Made by a program: the position numbers and the translations under genes
Origin: Candidatus Iainarchaeum sp.
GTDB lineage: Archaea > Iainarchaeota > Iainarchaeia > Iainarchaeales > GCA-2688035
Direction of reading: 5' to 3'
Length of the DNA stretch: 28,232 bases
Assembly: GCA_028713935.1 (NCBI GenBank)
Contig: JAQTNI010000014.1
Span: forward strand, 1-28,232
Part shown: piece after piece, positions 3,747 to 26,565 of the stretch
How the letters are laid out: each line of letters starts with the position of its first letter
How positions within the stretch are numbered: the first letter of the stretch is position 1
The notes under the pieces: generated by a model
What the model was told of the DNA's origin: nothing
Database searches by the model: none
The model's input: the letters and a program-made list of their open reading frames with translations, nothing else

Positions 3747-4961
3747 TTAAGCCTGAATTGTTATTTGCTTTGTTTCCATGGTTTCTGTAGGTAATTTTTC
3801 TTCAATGTTGTTTTCGAAGTATTCTTGGATTGTTATGCAGAGATTGTGGCAGACTGCTCTTGCGAGTATTTCGTTTTTTTGTGCTTGGAAGGATTTTGTT
3901 CTTAGGCAGGAGCCGAATTTGGATTTTATCATGTTGAAGCTTGATTCAACGTTTGAGCGTTTGTGATAGTGTTCTAAGAATTCTTGTCGATTGTTTTGGA
4001 AGTATTGGAATAGTTTTTTCCAGAGCATGCTTCCTCTTGCTTTTCCTGTTATCCCTTCTTTGAATGGAATGTAAGGCATTGCGTTTAGGTTTACTACAAT
4101 TTCAAGGTTCTTTTTTGAAGAATAAGCCTTGTCTGCTGAAACTTCTTTTACATTGAATTCTTTTGCCGTGCTTGTTACAAGTTTTTCAAATTGTGGAGAA
4201 TCTCCTGAAATTCCAGGAGTAATTTCAATGCTTGTTATTGCGTTTGTGCGAGTGCCAACCATTACGTGCGCTTTGACCCATTCTCTTTTTTCTATTTCTT
4301 TGCCCCATTTGTGGTCAAACCATCTGCCAAACTGGCTTGTTGAGAAGCCAGTGCTGTCAACTGCAAAATCTGCTTCCAGCTGCTTGAGGCTTAGTGCAGC
4401 AAGCTTGTATAATTCATCAAAAATTTGTGTCATTCTATTGTCTCGCAAATAATCCATTAGCACTGTGAAATCGTAAACATTTTCAATGAAGCCTTGTTGC
4501 TTTGCCATTTCCAAATCAGAAATCAATCTTCTGCTTGACAAGCCAGTAAAAGTTTTAAGAATCAAGGAAAATGCCATGTCTTTCAAGTCAACAGAAGGTC
4601 TGCCAATCCTATTGTGTTCTTTAATTACAAGGTAATCAAGCAATTCTCGCAGCATTTGCATTAACAACAATTTTTCATTCTTCTGGGCTTGAGAATAAGC
4701 ACTCCAATTCTGCGAAGGAACAGGCTTTGAAACATACTCAAATGTAGGCTGTTGCCCAACAGGAATTCTTTCTGACTTAAACCTTTTTCCACAAGCCTTG
4801 CAGCTAAACACGTGGCGAAAAAAAGTTCGGGGGCTATTAAAATGGCGGCCATGCTTAATTACAGACTCAGAACCGCAAAACTTGCAAGGAAGTGTTGTAT
4901 TCTTAATTCTAGTGTGTTTTGCGTAGATTATCCCCTCATTAATGTTTATCGGTGAATTCAT
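3747..4961 (-). CDS. DDE transposase (IS4/IS5-type DDE_Tnp_1 fold) with an N-terminal Zn ribbon
   Basis: N-terminal CKFCGS...CKACGK. Catalytic candidates are AVDSTGFS, SADKAYSS and YHKRSNVESSFNMIK, which matches the Y-x2-R-x3-E-x6-K signature. Terminal inverted repeats could not be identified confidently. Confidence 0.85.
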   Translation of the reverse strand: MNSPININEGIIYAKHTRIKNTTLPCKFCGSESVIKHGRHFNSPRTFFRHVFSCKACGKRFKSERIPVGQQPTFEYVSKPVPSQNWSAYSQAQKNEKLLLMQMLRELLDYLVIKEHNRIGRPSVDLKDMAFSLILKTFTGLSSRRLISDLEMAKQQGFIENVYDFTVLMDYLRDNRMTQIFDELYKLAALSLKQLEADFAVDSTGFSTSQFGRWFDHKWGKEIEKREWVKAHVMVGTRTNAITSIEITPGISGDSPQFEKLVTSTAKEFNVKEVSADKAYSSKKNLEIVVNLNAMPYIPFKEGITGKARGSMLWKKLFQYFQNNRQEFLEHYHKRSNVESSFNMIKSKFGSCLRTKSFQAQKNEILARAVCHNLCITIQEYFENNIEEKLPTETMETKQITIQA

Positions 4962-5071: not shown

Positions 5072-5284
5072 ATGGATGATAGATTAACCAAAGAAATTTT
5101 AAGCATAATCAGCCACTCTGAAAAGCCCCTTGACACAAAAACAATAGTTGACAAAATAAGAATAAAAGATAAAACCGCCACTAGGACAAAAATACTGCTG
5201 CGACTGCGTGAAATGAAGGGAAAAGACATCGAAGGCGAAATGTTTGGCTCGGGCAAGGGTGTTTGGATATGGTGGAAGAAGTGA
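5072..5284 (+). CDS. Small winged-helix protein upstream of the R-M operon (possible controller)
   Basis: MDDRLTKEILSIISHSEKPLDTKTIVDKIRIKD... has a wHTH-like pattern. It lies on the same strand as the first methyltransferase and 65 nt upstream of it. The start could instead be 5006. Confidence 0.45.
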   Translation: MDDRLTKEILSIISHSEKPLDTKTIVDKIRIKDKTATRTKILLRLREMKGKDIEGEMFGSGKGVWIWWKK

Positions 5285-5349
5285 TTACCGGAAAGCTGCT
5301 CTCTCGAAAAGCATTTAAAAGCCAAAATAATGTATTAATAGGGCCAATT

Positions 5350-6303
5350 ATGAGAGTAATATCTTTGTTTAGTGGGGCGGGTGGCATGGATTTAGGATTA
5401 ATCCAAGCAGGGCACCAGATTGTATGGGCAAACGACATAGATGAAGACTGTGTCATGTCCTACAAGAAAAATATCAGTCCTAATATTGTTCATGCAGACA
5501 TTTCAGAAATAAATTTAAACTTGATTCCTGATGCTGACATAGTAGTAGGCGGATTTCCCTGCCAAGGATTCTCTCAAGCAAATCTTAAGCGGTCAAAAGA
5601 TGATAAAAGAAACAAGTTGTATCTTTATTTTCTGAAAGTAATCCAACAAAAGCAGCCTAAATATTTCTTGGCTGAAAATGTAAGAGGCCTTCTTAGCATT
5701 GATGGCGGCAAGGCAATAAAAAGAATAATAAACGATTTTTCAAGTGCAGGGTACAGAGTCAAGCACAAACTTTTTAATTTGGCTGACTATGGTGTGCCTC
5801 AAACTCGAAATCGTGTTATAATAGCCGGGATAAGAAAAGACCTCCCTTGGGAAGCAGATTTTCAGTTTCCAATTCCAACTCACAGCAAAAAGGGAGAGAA
5901 AGAAGGGCTGCTACCGTGGATAACTATCTCTGAAGCACTAAGAGATATTTCGGAACCTGAAAATGAAAAAAATAGCCTTCCAAACAATGTCTTTTCAAAA
6001 TACAAAGTAACAAACAGGAATTTTACAGGACATCGCAAGACAGACCCAAGCAAACCGTCACCAACAATTTTAGCACGAGGCAATGGAAAAGGCGGCGTGT
6101 GCGCAATACAGCATCCAAAAAATCACAGGAGAATGAGCATTAGGGAAAGTGCAACAGTACAAACATTCCCGTTGGAATTTGAGTTTTATGGAAGCATGAA
6201 TTCTTGTTATAGGCAAGTGGGAAATGCTGTTCCAGTTCTTTTTGCAAGAAGGCTTGGAGAGCAATTGAAAATACTTGAAAGGAAAGTGACTGCATGCGCA
6301 TAG
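5350..6303 (+). CDS. DNA (cytosine-5)-methyltransferase, copy 1
   Basis: Motif I FSGAGGMDLG, motif IV GGFPCQGFS, motif VI ENV, motif VIII QTRNRV, motif X GNAVPV. The internal ATG (MRVISLFSGAGG) was chosen as start. Confidence 0.95.
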   Translation: MRVISLFSGAGGMDLGLIQAGHQIVWANDIDEDCVMSYKKNISPNIVHADISEINLNLIPDADIVVGGFPCQGFSQANLKRSKDDKRNKLYLYFLKVIQQKQPKYFLAENVRGLLSIDGGKAIKRIINDFSSAGYRVKHKLFNLADYGVPQTRNRVIIAGIRKDLPWEADFQFPIPTHSKKGEKEGLLPWITISEALRDISEPENEKNSLPNNVFSKYKVTNRNFTGHRKTDPSKPSPTILARGNGKGGVCAIQHPKNHRRMSIRESATVQTFPLEFEFYGSMNSCYRQVGNAVPVLFARRLGEQLKILERKVTACA

Positions 6304-7220
6304 TTTCTCTTTTCTCTGGTGCGGGCGGTCTTGACTGGGGCTTTCTGAAAGCAGGGCACCAGATTGTATGGGCAAACGACAACTTTGAGGTTGCAGTAGA
6401 AACATACAAGCAAAATATAGGGGCCCACATAGTGCTAAAGCCTATTGAGAAAGTCAAAAACAGCGAAATTCCAAGCTGTGATGTTGTTATAGGGGGATTT
6501 CCCTGCCAAGGATTCTCTGTTGCAAACAGAAAACGAACTGCAAAAGATAAGCGCAACACACTTTATCTGCAGTTTTTAAGAATACTCAAAGCAAAAAAAC
6601 CAAAGTATTTTCTTGCAGAAAATGTAAAAGGCTTGCTTTCGCTAGAACAAGGGAAGGTATTCGAAGCAATGATAAATGACTTTAGCAAGGCAGGATACAA
6701 AGTAAAACACACAGTAGTAAACGCTGCTGACTATGGGGTTCCCCAAAAAAGAGAAAGAGTAATAATACTTGGAACAAGAAAAACCGAGGACAAGGAAATA
6801 GATTTTCCAGCCCCCACACATTGCAGTCCAGGCAAAGCTAATTTGAATTATCTTAAGCCTTGGATTTCAATAGGTGAAGCCTTGAAAGGAATACCTGAAC
6901 CAGGTAATGCGGCAAACTTGCCAAACCACACTTGCTCGAAGTACAAGCTTATTTTCAATGGCCACATAGGGCACAGAAGGATAGACCCAACTAAGCCAGC
7001 ACCTACAGTTACTGGGCGGGGGGATGGCAGAGGCGGTGTTGTTGTATTGCACCACCCAAAAAACCATCGAAGGATGTCTGCTCGAGAACTGGCAACTGCC
7101 CAATCATTTCCACTTGATTATAACTTTTATGGAAGTCAAAGTTCGGCTTATCGCCAAATAGCCAATGCTGTTCCACCAAAATTGGCGCTATCTTTGGCAT
7201 TGTCAATTCCGAGGGATTAA
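6294..7220 (+). CDS. DNA (cytosine-5)-methyltransferase, copy 2 (paralog of copy 1)
   Basis: MRIVSLFSGAGGLDWG, GGFPCQGFS, ENV, QKRERV, ANAVPP. Its ATG overlaps the stop of copy 1 (ATGCGCATAG, 10-nt overlap). Confidence 0.95.
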   Translation: MRIVSLFSGAGGLDWGFLKAGHQIVWANDNFEVAVETYKQNIGAHIVLKPIEKVKNSEIPSCDVVIGGFPCQGFSVANRKRTAKDKRNTLYLQFLRILKAKKPKYFLAENVKGLLSLEQGKVFEAMINDFSKAGYKVKHTVVNAADYGVPQKRERVIILGTRKTEDKEIDFPAPTHCSPGKANLNYLKPWISIGEALKGIPEPGNAANLPNHTCSKYKLIFNGHIGHRRIDPTKPAPTVTGRGDGRGGVVVLHHPKNHRRMSARELATAQSFPLDYNFYGSQSSAYRQIANAVPPKLALSLALSIPRD

Positions 7221-8442
7221 ATTGGTAACAGCACCTAAAAAACCATTTCCAGAATATAAATGGCAGTGGGCAACGCTCACATGCACTGAGGGCCTTAATT
7301 CGCCCCCTGTTTTTTTAGGTGTGCTGCGTGCAATGAGGGCACACGAAGGAGAAGCGCCAAGCAGTTCTAGCTTCAATGAAGAATTAAAAAAAATTGAAAA
7401 CCAGACACCATCTTCAGTGCACCTTGCTCGCTCGCCGGATAGAAATATTGTTCGCAATTCAGGACAATATTGGAAAGCACTTGACTTAATTGAGGATGCG
7501 CATGGAAAAATTCAGCTTACTCCTTTTGGGCGCAAAGTTGCTGATAGGAATATAACTAAAACAGAATTTGCAACCACCGTAATAAAAACGCTTGAATTGC
7601 CAAACTTGAGAATAGAACCAAGTCCTGAAAAATGGAAACAGTCTGGCTTGCACATAAAACCACTTGAGCTTATCTTAAGCATTCTTGCAGAACTTGAAAA
7701 AGAAAAAGGAAAAAAGCAAGCGTATATCACGCCTTTCGAGCTCATCAGAATAGTAATTCCGCTTTCAGGAGAAAATGCCCCAATAAGAAATCAAATAGAA
7801 GCAATAATTTTGCACAGGCAAAACAGGCTGGATATATCAAATTGGCCTGACTGTGCAACTTCTGCAAATGACCAGCGCATGGCTCGCGAGTTTTTGTTGT
7901 TTCTTGAAAACTATGGGCTATGCAACAGAGTAAGTGGTAGGACAAGGCTTGATGAAAAGTATTATCTTTGCTCTTTGGAACCTGATGAAGCAGAAAGCTT
8001 GGTAAACATAAAGCCAAAAAATAGCTCCTTGAAAATGCTAGAAGAAGTAAAAGAAAGCCAAATTCCATTTGTTGCAGAAAGAAAAAAAGTTTTCATAGAA
8101 ATAATTGCGAGGTCACAGCAACCGCAATTTCGCAGAAATGTTCTAAGAGCATACAAATCCACCTGTCTGCTAACTGAAGAGAAATTATCTACTGTGCTTG
8201 AAGCTGCGCACATAAAACCCGCTAGCTTAAACGGCAATGACCGAATTGAAAATGGATTTTGCTTTAGGTCAGATATACACATGCTTTTTGATTCAGGCCA
8301 TATTCAAATAGACCCTGAAGGAAACATTAAAATGTCCGAAAGTGCTTTACGCTCAAGAAGCTACAAGGACCTGCCAAAACAAGTTAAAATTCCTAATTTT
8401 GTAAGCAGGAAAAATCTTGAGTGGAGATGGGCATATTGCTAA
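7165..8442 (+). CDS. HNH-family (HNH_2 / COG3440-like) endonuclease; putative restriction endonuclease of the module
   Basis: The C-terminus RSQQPQFRRNVLRAYKSTCLLTEEKLSTVLEAAHIKPASLNGNDRIENGFCFRSDIHMLFDSGHIQID matches the classical HNH_2 pattern. The roughly 330-aa N-terminal region was not recognised. The start is either ATG 7165 (overlapping the copy 2 methyltransferase) or TTG 7222. Confidence 0.8.
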   Translation: MLFHQNWRYLWHCQFRGIKLVTAPKKPFPEYKWQWATLTCTEGLNSPPVFLGVLRAMRAHEGEAPSSSSFNEELKKIENQTPSSVHLARSPDRNIVRNSGQYWKALDLIEDAHGKIQLTPFGRKVADRNITKTEFATTVIKTLELPNLRIEPSPEKWKQSGLHIKPLELILSILAELEKEKGKKQAYITPFELIRIVIPLSGENAPIRNQIEAIILHRQNRLDISNWPDCATSANDQRMAREFLLFLENYGLCNRVSGRTRLDEKYYLCSLEPDEAESLVNIKPKNSSLKMLEEVKESQIPFVAERKKVFIEIIARSQQPQFRRNVLRAYKSTCLLTEEKLSTVLEAAHIKPASLNGNDRIENGFCFRSDIHMLFDSGHIQIDPEGNIKMSESALRSRSYKDLPKQVKIPNFVSRKNLEWRWAYC

Positions 8443-8840
8443 TTTTTTTTATAGGTTGAAGCAATTTTATTGAATGCCTTCGCAGGATTATCTTTCAAGG
8501 AATGCTCCCAAACCCTAACAACTTTCCAGCCAGTTTTTCTTAATTCATTTTCCTTATTTTTCTCGCGTTCTAAATTGCAAGCCATCTTCTTCCTCCAGTA
8601 TCGAAGGTTTGAAGCTGGCATCTGGAAATGCTTTGGGCAGTTATGCCAGAAACAGCCATCCACAAAAATAGCAATTTTTTTGGAAGGAAATGCAATATCT
8701 ATTTTGTGCTTGCCGTAATGAATTCTGTAGCGCAACCCGGCCGCAAACAAAAGCTTCCGTAAAATCAGCTCAGGCTTGGTGTTCTTGCTGCGGATAGCAG
8801 ACATTATTCTTGACCTTGTTTCTATTGGCAGGTTATCCAT
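8439..8840 (-). CDS. vsr: Very-short-patch repair (Vsr) T:G mismatch endonuclease
   Basis: TRSRIMSAIRSKNTKPE...IDIAFPSKKIAIFVDGCFWHNCP...RYWRKKMACNLEREK...GWKVVRVWEH is the canonical Vsr pattern. It is convergent with the HNH gene and overlaps it by 4 nt. Confidence 0.9.
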   Translation of the reverse strand: MDNLPIETRSRIMSAIRSKNTKPELILRKLLFAAGLRYRIHYGKHKIDIAFPSKKIAIFVDGCFWHNCPKHFQMPASNLRYWRKKMACNLEREKNKENELRKTGWKVVRVWEHSLKDNPAKAFNKIASTYKKN

Positions 8841-8934
8841 ACTGAGTTATTGGCTGAAAAAGTTGATTAAAGTTTCTGCCAATAATAATAACTAAAGCCT
8901 TGATTAAAGTGAATACTTAATTTAAAAATTAGCT

Positions 8935-9420
8935 ATGCCTACAATAGTATGGTGGTTTAGCCTGTCTGATGAAAAAAACAAGGAAATTTTTTTGACTTTT
9001 ATTCTAGACAAAGCTTTTAGGAAAGAGGATTACTCAGAAATCGGACGGCTTCAAATAATAAAAATCTGTTTCTTAATAGATAAGCTATTCTCCGAACACA
9101 AATTATCCACAAGTGGCTATGAATACATCCTGGAAAGATTAGGTCCTTACTCGGATGAAATTATTAAACAGTTAGATAAAATGGTCTATGATGGAAAAAT
9201 CCAAAATGGGTCGCAATACTACAATTATCTTATTTTAAATTTGCCAGAGAAAATTAAAGAAGTTGAAAAGTTAAAAGAAACGATAGTAAAAGAAAAATTA
9301 GAAAAAGAAATAGACCAAATATTTGAACTGGCAAAAGATGTTGGCCTTCTTTTGGACTATGTGCATGGCTTGCCTGAAGTTAAATCTATCGAGATGGGTA
9401 AAAAAATTTATTTATACTAA
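8935..9420 (+). CDS. SocA/Panacea (DUF4065)-like small protein, candidate antitoxin
   Basis: GRLQIIKICFLIDKLF...YEYILERLGPYSDEIIKQL resembles the KLQKLLY...w.yGPv..ely core of DUF4065. It has an ATG start and ends 18 nt upstream of the next gene. The family call is by eye only. Confidence 0.5.
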   Translation: MPTIVWWFSLSDEKNKEIFLTFILDKAFRKEDYSEIGRLQIIKICFLIDKLFSEHKLSTSGYEYILERLGPYSDEIIKQLDKMVYDGKIQNGSQYYNYLILNLPEKIKEVEKLKETIVKEKLEKEIDQIFELAKDVGLLLDYVHGLPEVKSIEMGKKIYLY

Positions 9421-9438
9421 TTCTTAATTTGATTACAA

Positions 9439-10449
9439 ATGACCCCCGAAGAACTATTTGATAATCTAGTAAGCAGCAAATCAGAAAATGTTCCAGCATC
9501 AACAGACGAACTTATTTGCGCTTACTGCATATACCTTCTTGATACTCTAGATGACGCCACGCATGCTTTACTAAGTTTCCATGACGGTAAAAAAAACTTT
9601 TTACTGTGGGATACAACTAGAATAAACATTCCGTTCAAAAAAGGAGAAAGAATTTTTTGGAACGAATTTCTAAAAAAAACTAGTGGCCCTTGTAATTATT
9701 GTAAAATGCTGCACCAATTAAGAATTGGCGCGTTTAAATCCAACAATCCTCAAAAATACATCGCTCAAATAAACAAAATCGCTGAAAAACATTCAGATAA
9801 TTGTAGCGCATGTAAACCATCATCCCTATCAGATTATGTTAAAGAAAATCCCTTGCTTTTGGGGTACACTGGAGCACTGATTTTTAATAGCCCAATTAAT
9901 TTAACTCCAGAAAATTCAGAAACCCAATTCAACAGAATTTTAGCCGCACATCTTTCAAAAGAAATACAACAAAAGGACAAAACAATTTTGTGCAAAAGTG
10001 AAATTTCGGCAGACAAACTGTATACAAACGGCGACAAAAACTCGGCAGGAGCATTTGATATTCTTCTCTTAATAAAAACAAAAAAAACCAAATATTTCCT
10101 AATCCAAATTGAAAACAAGTTTGGTCAAGATTTTAAGGGGAAACATATATTAAGGCATATTTTATTAAAACAACAATTGCCAAAAATGGATGCTGAAATT
10201 AGTTGTGAAGTAAAAACAATCTATTTCTCGCCATATAATTTTGAGTTAGACAAAAAACTTAGAGAAAGCGTGGGTCATTTGAGTGAAGAACAACAAACAA
10301 TAATACACGACGACCTAAAAGCAAGCAATATCCTACTTTTTCCTGGAGAATGGAACAAATCATTAAATGATGTCGACAGGGTTTTAGACCATGGAACAAT
10401 AAAAAAGCACGTTGAAAAACTGAAAAATTTCTTAAAAAAAATTGATTAG
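9439..10449 (+). CDS. Zn-ribbon plus PD-(D/E)xK nuclease-like protein (PDDEXK_4-like), candidate effector
   Basis: CNYC-x33-CSAC. ETQFNRILAAHL is followed by GAFDILLLIKTKKTKYFLIQIENKF (D at 10057-10059; E-N-K at 10111-10119), which fits the D...ExK nuclease core. Confidence 0.65.
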   Translation: MTPEELFDNLVSSKSENVPASTDELICAYCIYLLDTLDDATHALLSFHDGKKNFLLWDTTRINIPFKKGERIFWNEFLKKTSGPCNYCKMLHQLRIGAFKSNNPQKYIAQINKIAEKHSDNCSACKPSSLSDYVKENPLLLGYTGALIFNSPINLTPENSETQFNRILAAHLSKEIQQKDKTILCKSEISADKLYTNGDKNSAGAFDILLLIKTKKTKYFLIQIENKFGQDFKGKHILRHILLKQQLPKMDAEISCEVKTIYFSPYNFELDKKLRESVGHLSEEQQTIIHDDLKASNILLFPGEWNKSLNDVDRVLDHGTIKKHVEKLKNFLKKID

Positions 10450-10511
10450 TGTTTTAACCATTTATTTAACTAGCTTGTTAAATTTTTGAGAGTTCCCAGC
10501 CTTAAACAGAA

Positions 10512-11351
10512 CTAAAGTTGCCTATTTTTCATTAGGTCAAATGCTTTTTTTATTTTTTGGAAAAAAATAGTTTCCCACTGTTCCTTAGTAATAATGTCAT
10601 CTTTCATCCAATTTTCTTCGGGGTCTTCAGTTTTGTACCACGCTCTGAATAACTTCCTTTTTGGTTCCAATTCACAAAATTTTCTTCCAGCAATCCAGTA
10701 TTTGAAAACCCAGTTGGACTGTGTTTCTTCGACAGAATCGTTCAAACTTTTTATGTCAGCCATAGCTTTTTTTATTAGCTCCTTGATATTTTGCTCAGAA
10801 CTCTTATTGATTAATTCATCCTTGGTTTTTGGTTTTTCTTCAATTAGTTTTATCCTCGAAAGTTCCTGTTCTAAAAGCTTTATTTCTTTCTGGGAGTTAA
10901 CCTCTAGGCAAAGGTACCTGAACAGCCTTATTTTTATGTCGTCTCGTATAAATCTCGCTTGCATTACCATTGATTCATCAAAATCAGGGGCAATAAGAAA
11001 TATTTGCGGCATTGTATCTTCGATATCAGTTTTGTACGCCTCCTTAATCCAATCAAGGCCTTGTTCCATTATCCAATCATAATATGATAATGCTTGCATT
11101 AACTGCCCTGAATCAACAGCTACTTTTAACTCAACCAAAGTAAGCACTTTTTGAGAATCTATCCCCAAAATATCCATTCGGTCTTGTCCGTGCGCCTTTT
11201 TCTGATGGGTTAGCACTTTGAAGCCATCTTCGATTTGTTCGGGATTCTTTACAAGTATTGATTCCAATTCGGCTTCATCTTTTAGTTTAGCTTCTTTTAA
11301 AACCATAAATAGATTCAACCAGCAAGACATTAAAAACCCTTTTTTGTGCAT
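10512..11351 (-). CDS. NucS/DUF91-like PD-(D/E)xK nuclease domain protein with a DUF5655-like C-terminal region
   Basis: EAELESILVKNPEQIEDGF...RMDILGIDSQKVLTLVELKVAVDSGQLMQALSYYDW follows the DUF91 pattern (D60, E74-x-K76). The start may be the internal Met, giving 10512..11306. Confidence 0.7.
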   Translation of the reverse strand: MHKKGFLMSCWLNLFMVLKEAKLKDEAELESILVKNPEQIEDGFKVLTHQKKAHGQDRMDILGIDSQKVLTLVELKVAVDSGQLMQALSYYDWIMEQGLDWIKEAYKTDIEDTMPQIFLIAPDFDESMVMQARFIRDDIKIRLFRYLCLEVNSQKEIKLLEQELSRIKLIEEKPKTKDELINKSSEQNIKELIKKAMADIKSLNDSVEETQSNWVFKYWIAGRKFCELEPKRKLFRAWYKTEDPEENWMKDDIITKEQWETIFFQKIKKAFDLMKNRQL

Positions 11352-11507: not shown

Positions 11508-11527
11508 AATATTGGTTAACCGATATT
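11508..11527. promoter_or_regulatory. Near-perfect 20-bp palindrome, candidate PadR operator (site 1)
   Basis: AATATTGGTTAACCGATATT. The reverse complement differs only at one symmetric position pair. It lies about 50-65 nt upstream of the PadR ATG. Confidence 0.35.
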
Positions 11528-11553
11528 AGTGTGGCGTAAGGGTTTTTTAAATC

Positions 11554-11571
11554 TATTGGGTAACCGATATT
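11554..11571. promoter_or_regulatory. Degenerate second copy of the operator-like motif (site 2)
   Basis: TATTGGGTAACCGATATT shares ATTGG-TAACCGATATT with site 1. It ends 4 nt before the PadR ATG. Confidence 0.3.
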
Positions 11572-11574
11572 GTT

Positions 11575-11880
11575 ATGGATTGCTGCAATATGAGGGGTTT
11601 TCTTTCTTACCTTATTTTATGGTGCCTGAGCAAGGAAAGCCTTAGTGGGACGGGCCTTGCAAGGGAGCTTGAAAAAAGGAAGGGGTCAAAGCCGAGCCCT
11701 GGCACTATTTATCCTGCCTTGAAAGAGCTTTTGGAAAAGGGCCTTGTGAGCAGGGATACAAGCAAGAATTATTCGCTTACAAAAAAAGGAGAAAAGGAAC
11801 TGAAAACTGCCTGTGGCTTTTTCTGCAGGGCTTTTTATGACATGGAAGAAATGGCAAATTGCTGTGCTGGCAAGTGTTAA
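11575..11880 (+). CDS. PadR-family transcriptional regulator with a Cys-rich C-terminus
   Basis: GFLSYLILWCLSKESLSGTGLARELEKRKGSKPSPGTIYPALKELLEKGLVSRD...YSLTKKGEKEL. It ends in ...EEMANCCAGKC. Confidence 0.85.
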   Translation: MDCCNMRGFLSYLILWCLSKESLSGTGLARELEKRKGSKPSPGTIYPALKELLEKGLVSRDTSKNYSLTKKGEKELKTACGFFCRAFYDMEEMANCCAGKC

Positions 11881-13598: not shown

Positions 13599-13796
13599 TT
13601 AGTAGTCTCTGCTTCTTCCGCCGCGTCCGCCGCCGCCACCGCGCATTGGCTTTTTGTGCTTCTGATAGCAATCTCTGCAGTACACTGGCCTTGAACCGTC
13701 TGGCTGGAATGGAACTTCTGTTTCCTTTCCGCATTCGGAGCAATTCACTTTGAACAGTGCCCTGCCGAATTTATCTTCACTCATTTGCTTTTTCAC
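13599..13796 (-). CDS. CxxC-x17-CxxC zinc-ribbon protein with an RGG-type tail
   Basis: CSECGKETEVPFQPDGSRPVYCRDC followed by MRGGGGGRGGRSRDY. Confidence 0.75.
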   Translation of the reverse strand: MKKQMSEDKFGRALFKVNCSECGKETEVPFQPDGSRPVYCRDCYQKHKKPMRGGGGGRGGRSRDY

Positions 13797-22470: not shown

Positions 22471-22576
22471 ATAATAAAAATTAAAATCAAAGAATTTAAA
22501 AAGATTCTACAAAGCCCTTTTCAAATAAAAAAACAAAAACCGAAGGTTAAAAAACAGAAAAAACAACTTCTTATTG

Positions 22577-23434
22577 ATGCGCGAAGAAAAAATTCTGGAT
22601 TCAGAAAAAAAAGCGCTTGCTGAAAGATTCAGGCAGGAACTTGTCATTGGGGGCTATTCCGCAAGGACAGCAAAAATGTACTGCCTTTACCTTGAAGAAT
22701 TCCTTTTTCGAACACCAAAAAAAGTTTCTGAAATACAACGCGAAGACATAGTCAATTTTCTTGCGCTAAAAAAAGAAACAGGCATGGCCGGCAACGCAAC
22801 TCTTTCACTGGTTCATTCAGCACTGAAATTCTTTTTTGAAAAATTGTTCAAAAACAAAATAATGGACGAAATAAGCATGCCAAAAAGGGCAAAAACGCTG
22901 CCAAGCGTGCTGACAAAAGCAGAGGTAAAAGCACTCATAAAAGCTGCAAAGAAAAAAAACAAGCGCCTTATAATAGAGCTTCTTTATTCTTCTGGCCTGC
23001 GTGTAAGCGAAGCAGTGAAACTAAAAACAGAAAACCTGAACCTCAAAGAAAGGACTGCGCGTGTTTCGGGCGGAAAGGGAAACAAGGACAGGACAGTAAT
23101 TCTTTCAAAATTCTGGATAAAAAAATTCAAAAAGTACCTGTCTAAAAGAAAAGTAAAAAGCCCCTTTGTTTTTGCAAAAAAAAATGGCTCTCCAATTTCA
23201 ACTGATTCCATTGAAAGGCTAGTAAAAAAAACAGCAAAAAAAGCAGGCATAGAAAAAAAAGTAACGCCCCACACTTTGAGGCATTCACATGCAACACACT
23301 TATTGGAAGCTGGAGAAAACATAAGGACAATACAGGAACTGCTTGGCCATTCCTCGCTTGCAACAACACAGATATACACCCATGTTTCCTCTGAAACCCT
23401 GAAAAAAGTAAAAAACCCCCTTGACAAGCTTTGA
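22577..23434 (+). CDS. xerA: Tyrosine recombinase, XerA/XerC/XerD-like
   Basis: An N-terminal SAM-like core-binding region (GYSARTAKMYCLYLEEFL) is present. The catalytic region contains GLRVSEAVKL...TPHTLRHSHATHLLEAGENIRTIQELLGHSSLATTQIYTHV. Confidence 0.9.
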   Translation: MREEKILDSEKKALAERFRQELVIGGYSARTAKMYCLYLEEFLFRTPKKVSEIQREDIVNFLALKKETGMAGNATLSLVHSALKFFFEKLFKNKIMDEISMPKRAKTLPSVLTKAEVKALIKAAKKKNKRLIIELLYSSGLRVSEAVKLKTENLNLKERTARVSGGKGNKDRTVILSKFWIKKFKKYLSKRKVKSPFVFAKKNGSPISTDSIERLVKKTAKKAGIEKKVTPHTLRHSHATHLLEAGENIRTIQELLGHSSLATTQIYTHVSSETLKKVKNPLDKL

Positions 23435-25811: not shown

Positions 25812-26253
25812 GTAATCTGCAATTTTTTTCATTACTGTAACAATTTTGCATCTTGGTAGCACTAGTGAGTTAACTTTATGCCGCAAGTTTTGGCACTTTT
25901 TAGCCTTGTTTGTTATTTTGCCAGTTTGTCTCTTTTGTGAGCCTGTTTTTTTGTGCATTGTTTTTTGTTCTGGCCTGCGCCTCTTGGTTTGTCAGCAGGT
26001 GAGATTGCATTTTAGGCTAGGTTTTTGCCAATAATCTAGAATTTCTTTAAGTTGCCTGTAGTGATGCTTCTTACCCAGTTGGCTTTTGTAAAAATTAGGT
26101 TTTGCTTTGTTTATTTTGCCATGTGAGATAACCAATTTATTGTTGCATGGCGAGCAAATGCAGAATTTGATGCCACTTGTATGTTGTGAGCTGGCTTATT
26201 TTTTGCCATAAAATAGACTTTTTTTGCCTTTAATATATTATTATATATTAGAT

Positions 26254-26328
26254 TAGCGCGGGAAGGATTTGAACCTTCGACCTTCGGGTTATGAGCCCGA
26301 CGGGCACTCCTGGCTGCCCCACCGCGCT
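26254..26328 (-). tRNA. tRNA-Met (anticodon CAT), archaeal initiator-type
   Basis: The cloverleaf was folded by hand: acceptor AGCGCGG/CCGCGCT, D stem GGGC/GCCC, anticodon stem TCGGG/CCCGA, loop CTCATAA, T stem GAAGG/CCTTC, T loop TTCAAAT. It has A1:U72 and three G:C pairs next to the anticodon loop. CCA is not encoded. Confidence 0.9.
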
Positions 26329-26565
26329 ATTTGCTATACTTAACTACTTTTCAAACAATTTTTAAAATCTCGTTTTAATACATTTAAAACTTTTAAAAAA
26401 TTGTAAATGCAAAAGGAAGCCCTTTGGCGGGTTTTTTTGCTTTAAAAACCAATTTTTTTGCTTGCTTTGTGTTTTTTGGCAGTTTTTTTGCTTTATTCTT
26501 TTAGGGGATTAGCGGAAGAATCGTGTCCAATAATTTGTGTTTTTTTGCCTTTGTTTTTGTGCATT

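Follow-up and report, generated by a model that had tools for sequence, protein, structure and literature searches.

In Panacea toxin-antitoxin (PanAT) systems, one antitoxin domain is paired with dozens of unrelated toxins. The present analysis concerns two adjacent genes of Candidatus Iainarchaeum sp., a DPANN archaeon, which probably form a module of this kind: gene 1 appears to encode a divergent Panacea antitoxin (PanA) and gene 2 a toxin (PanT) with a predicted nuclease domain of the PD-(D/E)xK type. Both lie on a complete contig of 28,232 bp (JAQTNI010000014.1) from a metagenome-assembled genome (MAG), referred to below as the window. An earlier note on this DNA had read them as a candidate toxin-antitoxin (TA) or defence pair, and this reading is supported here. 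The two open reading frames (ORFs), both with ATG starts in the ORF list, and their spacer are:

8935..9420, forward strand: gene 1 (PHD95_03155), 161 aa
9421..9438, forward strand: intergenic spacer of 18 nt
9439..10449, forward strand: gene 2 (PHD95_03160), 336 aa

The two genes share one strand and a common reading frame, and are presumably co-transcribed. Their arrangement was as the earlier note had given it (same strand, 18 nt apart), and all of the peptide strings quoted there were present.

Comparison with described Panacea systems

The in silico definition of PanAT loci by Kurata et al. 2022 (PMC8832971) asks for a Panacea gene with a partner, a gap of 100 nt or less, occurrence in a minimum of two species, and the absence of any longer conserved operon. 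PanA proteins assemble into complexes with the cognate toxins and neutralise them, by means of the Panacea core or of appended elements, and a role as sensor is possible (PMC8832971; PMC10440598). The Iainarchaeum pair resembles these loci: the Panacea gene comes first, an unrelated partner follows directly downstream with a spacing under 100 nt, and the flanks are unrelated. The gap stays within 100 nt, at least two species carry the pair and no operon is conserved beyond three genes; gene 1 is recognised as Panacea only via transitive homology. Lacking an extra N-terminal domain, gene 1 is like the PanAT “noNTD” type. Unlike other PanA proteins, the copy in the window is so divergent that PF13274 misses it and, unlike PanAT toxins, gene 2 belongs to a family without a match to Pfam or any other profile, so far present only in MAGs and metagenomes of DPANN-type archaea.

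No system model of PADLOC matches the pair, in agreement with the earlier note, which had not recognised the pairing as a named system, but it does belong among the PanATs in the broad sense of Kurata et al. 2022 (PMC8832971). The kind of system is known, partner swapping being its defining trait; the family of the putative gene-2 toxin, its N-terminal domain and the occurrence in DPANN archaea are new. The DPANN phyla carrying the pair are not among the phyla named in the available portions of the NetFlax text (PMC10440598) and of the Kurata et al. dataset, which is no proof of their absence.

Nuclease-fold proteins have been predicted as Panacea partners before. In the accessible part of Dataset S1 of Kurata et al. 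(PMC8832971), two predicted PanT clusters are marked “notest”: T70 (HNHc) and the haloarchaeal T71, described as EndoMS/NucS-like and with an HHpred match to VC1899 (95%). Both are like gene 2 in being nuclease-fold proteins predicted as Panacea-neutralised toxins, and T71 is archaeal too; as judged by its description in that part of the dataset, T71 differs from gene 2, which has an additional Cys-bearing N-terminal domain of 150 aa. Two further TA systems were compared. In SocAB, SocA is also a Panacea protein, but gene 2 is not SocB-like. DarTG was rejected: neither gene matched Macro or DarT (Pfam, PADLOC), and a DarG match of gene 1 was limited to the non-macro part.

Conservation of the pair at distant loci

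A Panacea gene was found directly upstream of the gene-2 homolog in eight of eight lineages, so that the co-conservation of the two genes, on which the earlier note had made its reading depend, holds throughout. The lineages are distinct (20-39% identity); among them are an Iainarchaeum MAG, L010 from a Nanoarchaeota MAG, and L004 on an archaeal contig of 540 kb. L001, L002 and L011 are one locus and were counted once, as were L004, L005 and L006. In the six complete pairs the spacing ranged from -4 to 31 nt. The upstream Panacea genes, each on the same strand as the gene-2 homolog, are:

L001, 846-1337: Panacea gene
L003, 23-490: Panacea gene
L004, 9493-9969: Panacea gene
L007, 1178-1639: Panacea gene
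L009, 318-836: Panacea gene
L010, 3992-4456: Panacea gene

The contig of L008 begins inside the Panacea gene, and the remaining tail of 44 aa scored 38 bits against the family profile. Because distant homologs of each gene keep the same arrangement elsewhere, both ORFs are real genes and did not arise by chance.

The flanking genes differ at every locus, both upstream and downstream, and the pair therefore moves as a unit. The genes convergent with the pair in the window and in L004 are unrelated and no third gene is conserved. A three-gene system including the NucS-like nuclease found downstream in the window was rejected on these grounds, the downstream genes being unrelated between loci and the gene-2 profile having no match to this NucS-like protein. 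The GC content of the pair was under that of the locus in five of the six loci; in the window the GC content fell to 0.32 over 9000-11000 vs. about 0.38-0.43 in the flanks.

Several of the distant loci are rich in defence or mobile-element genes. In L004 (540-kb contig, GCA_974432145.1; 1078-12105) the pair lies within a dense defence island comprising a DDE transposase, PAPS_reduct, DNA_S_mod_dnd_assoc_4 and SMC_N-like genes (a dnd/ssp-like set), a DEAD/SWI2_SNF2 helicase and a Cas4-like PD-(D/E)xK protein; the convergent protein of 355 aa matches the PADLOC profile CARF_m1--CARF_PIN (1.9e-7). On one side of the L010 pair there is a D12 adenine methyltransferase together with a 338-aa ORF lacking annotation, which may be the restriction endonuclease of this methyltransferase, and on the other side a DDE transposase. 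L008 is flanked by a serine recombinase, an integrase and an N6_N4 methyltransferase. The flanks of L001 and L007 hold ordinary genes and no restriction-modification (R-M) genes. Two gene-2 homologs deserve separate mention:

L010, 4453-5550: gene-2 homolog of the Nanoarchaeota MAG, overlapping its Panacea gene by 4 nt
L009, 836-1357: truncated gene-2 homolog, covering only profile positions 4-169, without the nuclease domain

The L009 homolog lacks a canonical start codon ahead of residue 84 and continues into unrelated sequence, next to an intact Panacea gene. Either the toxin has decayed here or the assembly is chimeric; a toxin that does harm would be expected to be lost in this way.

Gene 1, a divergent Panacea protein

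Gene 1 showed no significant match in Pfam, NCBIfam, PHROGs, PADLOC or PDB sequences, and in a word-indexed search of 5.8 billion clusters gene 1 and gene 2 each retrieved only themselves. A match of gene 1 to 7rdr in the PDB, a designed helical repeat protein, was taken as compositional. Its orthologs, the upstream partners of the gene-2 homologs (153-172 aa, 30-39% identical to gene 1), were more informative. Five of the six lie above the gathering score of PF13274 (SocA_Panacea; 25.7 bits), with 26.1, 28.9, 32.1, 30.3 and 26.5 bits, the L007 partner remaining under it (16.6 bits), and the family consensus reached 26.1 bits over model positions 2-95 of 113. Gene 1 itself matched a profile of five orthologs, from which it had been excluded, with 135.9 bits (E 6e-44). 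Because the orthologs reach PF13274 and gene 1 matches the ortholog profile (transitive homology), gene 1 can be classed as a divergent PanA protein that consists of a single Panacea domain, with no additional domain at its N-terminus. The earlier note had proposed Panacea/DUF4065 for gene 1 and had named a missing profile hit as evidence to the contrary: a direct match to PF13274 is indeed missing, but the assignment stands by way of the orthologs. The core maps as follows:

9040..9345, forward strand: Panacea-like core of gene 1, about residues 36-137 (approximate boundaries)

These limits were transferred via an alignment of the family (A2) from the L001 partner, whose residues 45-139 correspond to PF13274 model positions 2-97 of 113. 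In the same alignment the invariant motifs of the core are I36-x-RLQ-xx-K43, D49, Y62, G70-P71 and Y95-Y96-x-Y98. A C-terminal block (E131, D135, L140, V143, E148-V149) is also strongly conserved in this subfamily. Conservation of Y95-Y96-x-Y98 and of the C-terminal block equals or exceeds that of the canonical RLQ..K and GP motifs of Panacea, which makes both of them candidate toxin-binding or sensing surfaces.

Two weak matches to defence profiles were also seen. The PADLOC DarG profile matched gene 1 (E 3.4e-4, 18.2 bits, profile positions 176-271 of 329) and the PADLOC candidate-defence profile PDC-M19A matched the Panacea core of the L003 partner (E 6.5e-6); both are confined to the parts of the profiles that align with the Panacea core.

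Gene 2, a rare family with a predicted nuclease core

An exhaustive HMMER search with gene 2 over 1.84 billion representatives returned five full-length relatives (P0003-P0007: 322-354 aa, 24-31% identity, E 2.5e-13 to 1.6e-6) and one fragment (P0010); two further matches, to a repeat protein and a plant kinase, were spurious. The L010 homolog, detected by a genome scan based on gene 1, is the seventh full-length member (96 bits against the family profile). A word-indexed search with the family alignment (A1) yielded only self-matches or P0007, and scans based on gene 1 with three-sequence alignments added L010 as the only new locus, together with L011, the duplicate of L001. No copies of the pair were found in the viral contigs, phages and plasmids of IMG/VR, INPHARED and PLSDB. 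In public sources the proteins of both genes are nameless or “hypothetical protein”. Gene 2 had no sequence match in Pfam, NCBIfam, PHROG, PADLOC or PDB; the best Pfam matches of single members of the family were weak (NOV_C, 0.013; ThaI, 0.022). By these comparisons gene 2 belongs to no described family. It is very rare, with about eight lineages, so far all from metagenomes or MAGs.

The seven-sequence alignment of the family (A4) has pairwise identities of 20-29%. D207, E225 and K227 are invariant in all seven homologs, and position 161 is E in six and D in one; the conservation of the D/E/K residues, as well as their codon positions, was found as the earlier note had it. Further invariant residues (7/7) are F164, P138, L141, Y29, L33, W57 and H324. 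An AlphaFold2 model from a six-sequence alignment (pLDDT 83.4, pTM 0.84) places the four putative catalytic residues in one predicted core:

9907..10236, forward strand: PD-(D/E)xK-type catalytic core, about residues 157-266 (model secondary structure)
9919..9921, forward strand: E161 codon, in the first core helix
10057..10059, forward strand: D207 codon, at the start of the second core strand (205-214)
10111..10119, forward strand: E225-N-K227 (ExK), third core strand; E225 within strand 218-226, K227 just beyond it

The core runs in the model as helix 157-175, strands 181-190, 205-214 and 218-226, helix 235-249 and strand 255-266. In the canonical PD-(D/E)xK layout the elements run alpha-beta-beta-beta-alpha-beta, D opening the second strand and ExK lying on the third. 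Both the order of the predicted elements and the placement of E161, D207, E225 and K227 agree with it, and gene 2 very likely carries a nuclease domain of this type.

Structural neighbours of the model were distant. The best non-spurious Foldseek matches in the PDB were Card1 (E 0.013, prob 0.69, TM 0.24), Nt.BspD6I and EcoO109I, all of them weak; matches to Hsp70 were set aside for their low probability. Weak fold matches in BFVD included several proteins annotated as PD-(D/E)XK, UL24 and the N-termini of bunyavirus L. The Card1 nuclease domain (6wxw/6xl1) and EcoO109I show the same E...D...ExK set on an alpha-beta-beta-beta-alpha-beta core as gene 2. Card1 nevertheless differs from it: the match is weak, the sequence profiles are not related and the N-terminal domain of gene 2 is not CARF-like. 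VC1899, the match of T71, is grouped among the CARF nucleases with Card1, and Card1 gave the best PDB fold match of gene 2.

Two sequence comparisons with particular nucleases were negative. An hhalign comparison of the gene-2 profile with the neighbouring NucS-like protein gave nothing. The motif style of PF14281 (PDDEXK_4), the family that the earlier note had likened gene 2 to, is similar (an E-containing helix, then D, then IENK), and was used as a lead only. The likeness was not borne out, with no match of PF14281 to six members at E<=1, to the L010 homolog at E<=0.01, or to the full and C-terminal consensus at E<=10.

Upstream of the core, gene 2 has a separate domain with a cysteine cluster:

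9439..9888, forward strand: N-terminal domain of gene 2, about residues 1-150, with invariant Y29, L33, W57, P138 and L141
9691..9813, forward strand: Cys4 cluster C85-x2-C88 ... C122-x2-C125, putative metal site

No family matched this domain of about 150 residues, even with the N-terminal consensus as query; it appears to be a novel domain fused to the nuclease-type domain. A CARF-like sensor, an idea arising from the Card1 match, was rejected for gene 2, the N-terminus being predicted as a beta-hairpin meander with helices and not as a Rossmann-like fold. The string CNYC-x33-CSAC was confirmed to the letter (C85, C88, C122, C125), but the Zn-ribbon reading attached to it by the earlier note was not supported. 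Residues 84-136 are predicted helical in the model, with the Cys pairs at helix ends and without the beta-hairpin knuckles of a zinc ribbon, and all four cysteines are complete in only five of seven homologs: P0003 is without C122 and L010 keeps only C125. A metal site, with Zn or Fe-S, is plausible; Fer2_BFD gave only a hint against the consensus (E 0.029, not significant). The metal site seems dispensable for the role of the family, because the L010 homolog lost three cysteines but keeps E/D/ExK and the N-terminal Y, L and W.

Neighbouring genes in the window

The pair directly follows an R-M-like block with a Vsr gene, as previously described, and faces a convergent gene. The neighbouring features, the first from Pfam/NCBIfam matches, are:

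5263-8840: R-M-like block upstream of the pair
5263-6303 and 6294-7220: two tandem overlapping Dcm C5-methyltransferase paralogs (PF00145, E 1e-77 to 1e-81)
8439-8840, reverse strand: Vsr gene closing the block (PF03852, E 1e-22)
8841..8934, forward strand: AT-rich intergenic stretch between the divergent vsr and gene 1, putative promoter
10512-11351, reverse strand: 279-aa NucS-like protein, convergent with gene 2, with similarity to NucS_C (formerly DUF91)
3747-4961, reverse strand: DDE_Tnp_1 transposase, just upstream of the R-M block
22574-23434, forward strand: tyrosine recombinase/integrase
26253-26329, reverse strand: tRNA-Met gene
11510-11578 and 11575-11880: direct repeats and the PadR-family regulator gene that they precede
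13599-13796, reverse strand: 65-aa ORF

The stretch at 8841..8934 is presumed to be the promoter of the two-gene operon. In the R-M-like block, a 425-aa protein overlapping the second Dcm gene has a C-terminal HNH_2 domain (PF13391, E 1.5e-9) and a weakly AlwI-like N-terminal region; it also matches the NCBIfam family “phosphorothioated DNA-binding restriction endonuclease”, with a sub-threshold score (55.8 bits, cutoff 180). The 5' ends of the two Dcm paralogs share an 88-nt repeat with 74% identity.

The convergent gene had been called a DUF91 nuclease. Its orientation and its likeness to NucS_C were confirmed, but the score (21.4 bits) is under the Pfam cutoff of 24 bits. It also matches the PADLOC candidate-defence profiles PDC-S11 and PDC-S18 (about 1e-10), is not kept with the pair at other loci, and may be an independent single-gene defence nuclease. 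The transposase, the integrase and the tRNA-Met gene fit a mobile or island-like region.

Two other features lie further downstream. Direct repeats of 25 nt (TATTGGTTAACCGATATTAGTGTGG and TATTGGGTAACCGATATTGTTATGG), 44 nt apart, stand immediately upstream of the PadR gene, reaching into its start, and are candidate operator sites. The 65-aa ORF has a CxxC...CxxC pattern and a Gly/Arg-rich C-terminal tail (KKPMRGGGGGRGGRSRDY), and looks like a small zinc-ribbon nucleic-acid-binding protein.

Proposed mechanism and alternative explanations

The pair is probably a PanAT-type (type II) TA module in which PanA silences a PD-(D/E)xK nuclease toxin, carried by a DPANN archaeon in an island of defence and mobile elements. 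The two genes would be co-transcribed and PanA would bind the nuclease directly, keeping it inactive. Loss, degradation or displacement of PanA, brought about for instance by a viral trigger, by stress or by island loss, would free the nuclease, with E161, D207, E225 and K227 as its predicted catalytic residues, to cut nucleic acid, most probably DNA. Growth arrest or death would follow, serving as an abortive-infection type of defence and/or stabilising the R-M island. The analysis establishes the structure of the two genes, the Panacea affiliation of the gene-1 family, the conserved catalytic motif on a predicted restriction-endonuclease-like core and the strict co-occurrence of the genes as a mobile unit; complex formation, toxicity, substrate and trigger are inferred. 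This is taken as the most likely explanation because the pair agrees with the definition of PanAT loci and PanA proteins neutralise their toxins by forming complexes.

Several observations weigh against it. On the side of gene 1, PF13274 gave no match at E<=1 in the Pfam scan, and a single-sequence structure model was unusable (pLDDT 47). On the side of gene 2, the family consensus matched no nuclease family in Pfam, Foldseek returned nothing from the PDB at E<=1e-3, and neither profiles nor folds gave a significant match to a known family of nucleases. Mean identity was higher in the gene-1 family (35%) than in the gene-2 family (24%), the reverse of the usual type II pattern. The mirror-tree correlation was not significant (r = 0.31), because the phylogeny is star-like. 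Only about half of the Panacea proteins are found in TA-like loci (PMC8832971) and, in the accessible part of that study, no nuclease-fold PanT was validated experimentally, T70 and T71 being predictions only (PMC8832971).

The alternative that survives best, although unlikely, is a two-component defence nuclease, in which Panacea would be a bound sensor or regulator that allosterically activates the nuclease against invading DNA, and gene 2 alone would be non-toxic. It overlaps the PanAT explanation, the one difference being whether or not the nuclease, once free, is harmful to the host. The genomic context is consistent with it: the pair stands beside R-M, dnd-like or Cas4-like genes in three of six flanked loci, and in a fourth its neighbours are methyltransferase, integrase and recombinase genes. 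The higher conservation of the Panacea partner with respect to the nuclease and the weak PDC-M19A match of the Panacea core (E 6.5e-6, L003 partner) point the same way, and Ernits et al. 2023 (PMC10440598) propose a mainly sensory Panacea, with activation not necessarily involving dissociation. However, no PADLOC system model fits the pair, all of the working PanA-PanT pairs tested consist of a toxin and its neutraliser (PMC8832971), and the decayed gene-2 copy of L009 beside an intact PanA suggests that the nuclease is costly.

A non-toxic housekeeping or accessory nuclease, acting in repair or as part of the R-M system, with Panacea as a structural partner or with an adjacency without meaning, is improbable. 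About half of the Panacea proteins do lie outside TA-like loci (PMC8832971) and, in the window, the pair is directly beside the R-M/Vsr block. Co-occurrence in eight of eight lineages with unrelated flanks nevertheless rules out chance adjacency; the R-M genes are not kept with the pair (L001 and L007 have none) and the convergent downstream genes are non-homologous between loci. The patchy and rare distribution, the low GC and the links to transposases and integrases typify mobile selfish or defence modules rather than housekeeping genes.

To our knowledge, ClpXP (the protease used by SocA) is bacterial and not expected in DPANN archaea, which counts against a SocAB-like (type VI) arrangement, in which Panacea would be a proteolytic adaptor delivering the nuclease to a cellular protease without inhibiting it. 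Such an arrangement is very improbable: SocA, the founding Panacea protein, does act so in Caulobacter (PMC8832971), but the complexes of the PanATs that Kurata et al. examined are stable, as is typical of type II systems (PMC8832971), and no similarity of gene 2 to another family was detected.

Significance for Panacea systems and DPANN archaea

Little is known of the defence and addiction repertoires of DPANN archaea, whose genomes are minimal. As far as we know, validated PanAT toxins mainly hit translation or membranes, and nuclease-fold partners beyond mRNA interferases have only been predicted. The pair adds a well-supported candidate for a PanT with a restriction-endonuclease fold and brings DPANN archaea (Iainarchaeota, Nanoarchaeota) into the Panacea network. 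It overturns no concept, because the swapping of partners by Panacea already defines the PanAT family. Its practical value is modest but real: a small testable pair whose predicted catalytic residues are named, a new domain to characterise, about 150 aa long, and a seed alignment for a new family.

A bolder reading, which we regard as tentative and rather unlikely in its full extent, is that of a DPANN-specific module for abortive infection or island stabilisation, in which a sensory Panacea would gate a new class of DNase whose N-terminal domain would be a new fold with a redox- or metal-sensitive Cys4 (possibly Fe-S). If this were true, the N-terminal domain of gene 2 would serve in target recognition or trigger sensing, the pair would provide the first nuclease-type PanT known to be functional, and no TA or defence effector native to DPANN archaea would have been characterised before it.

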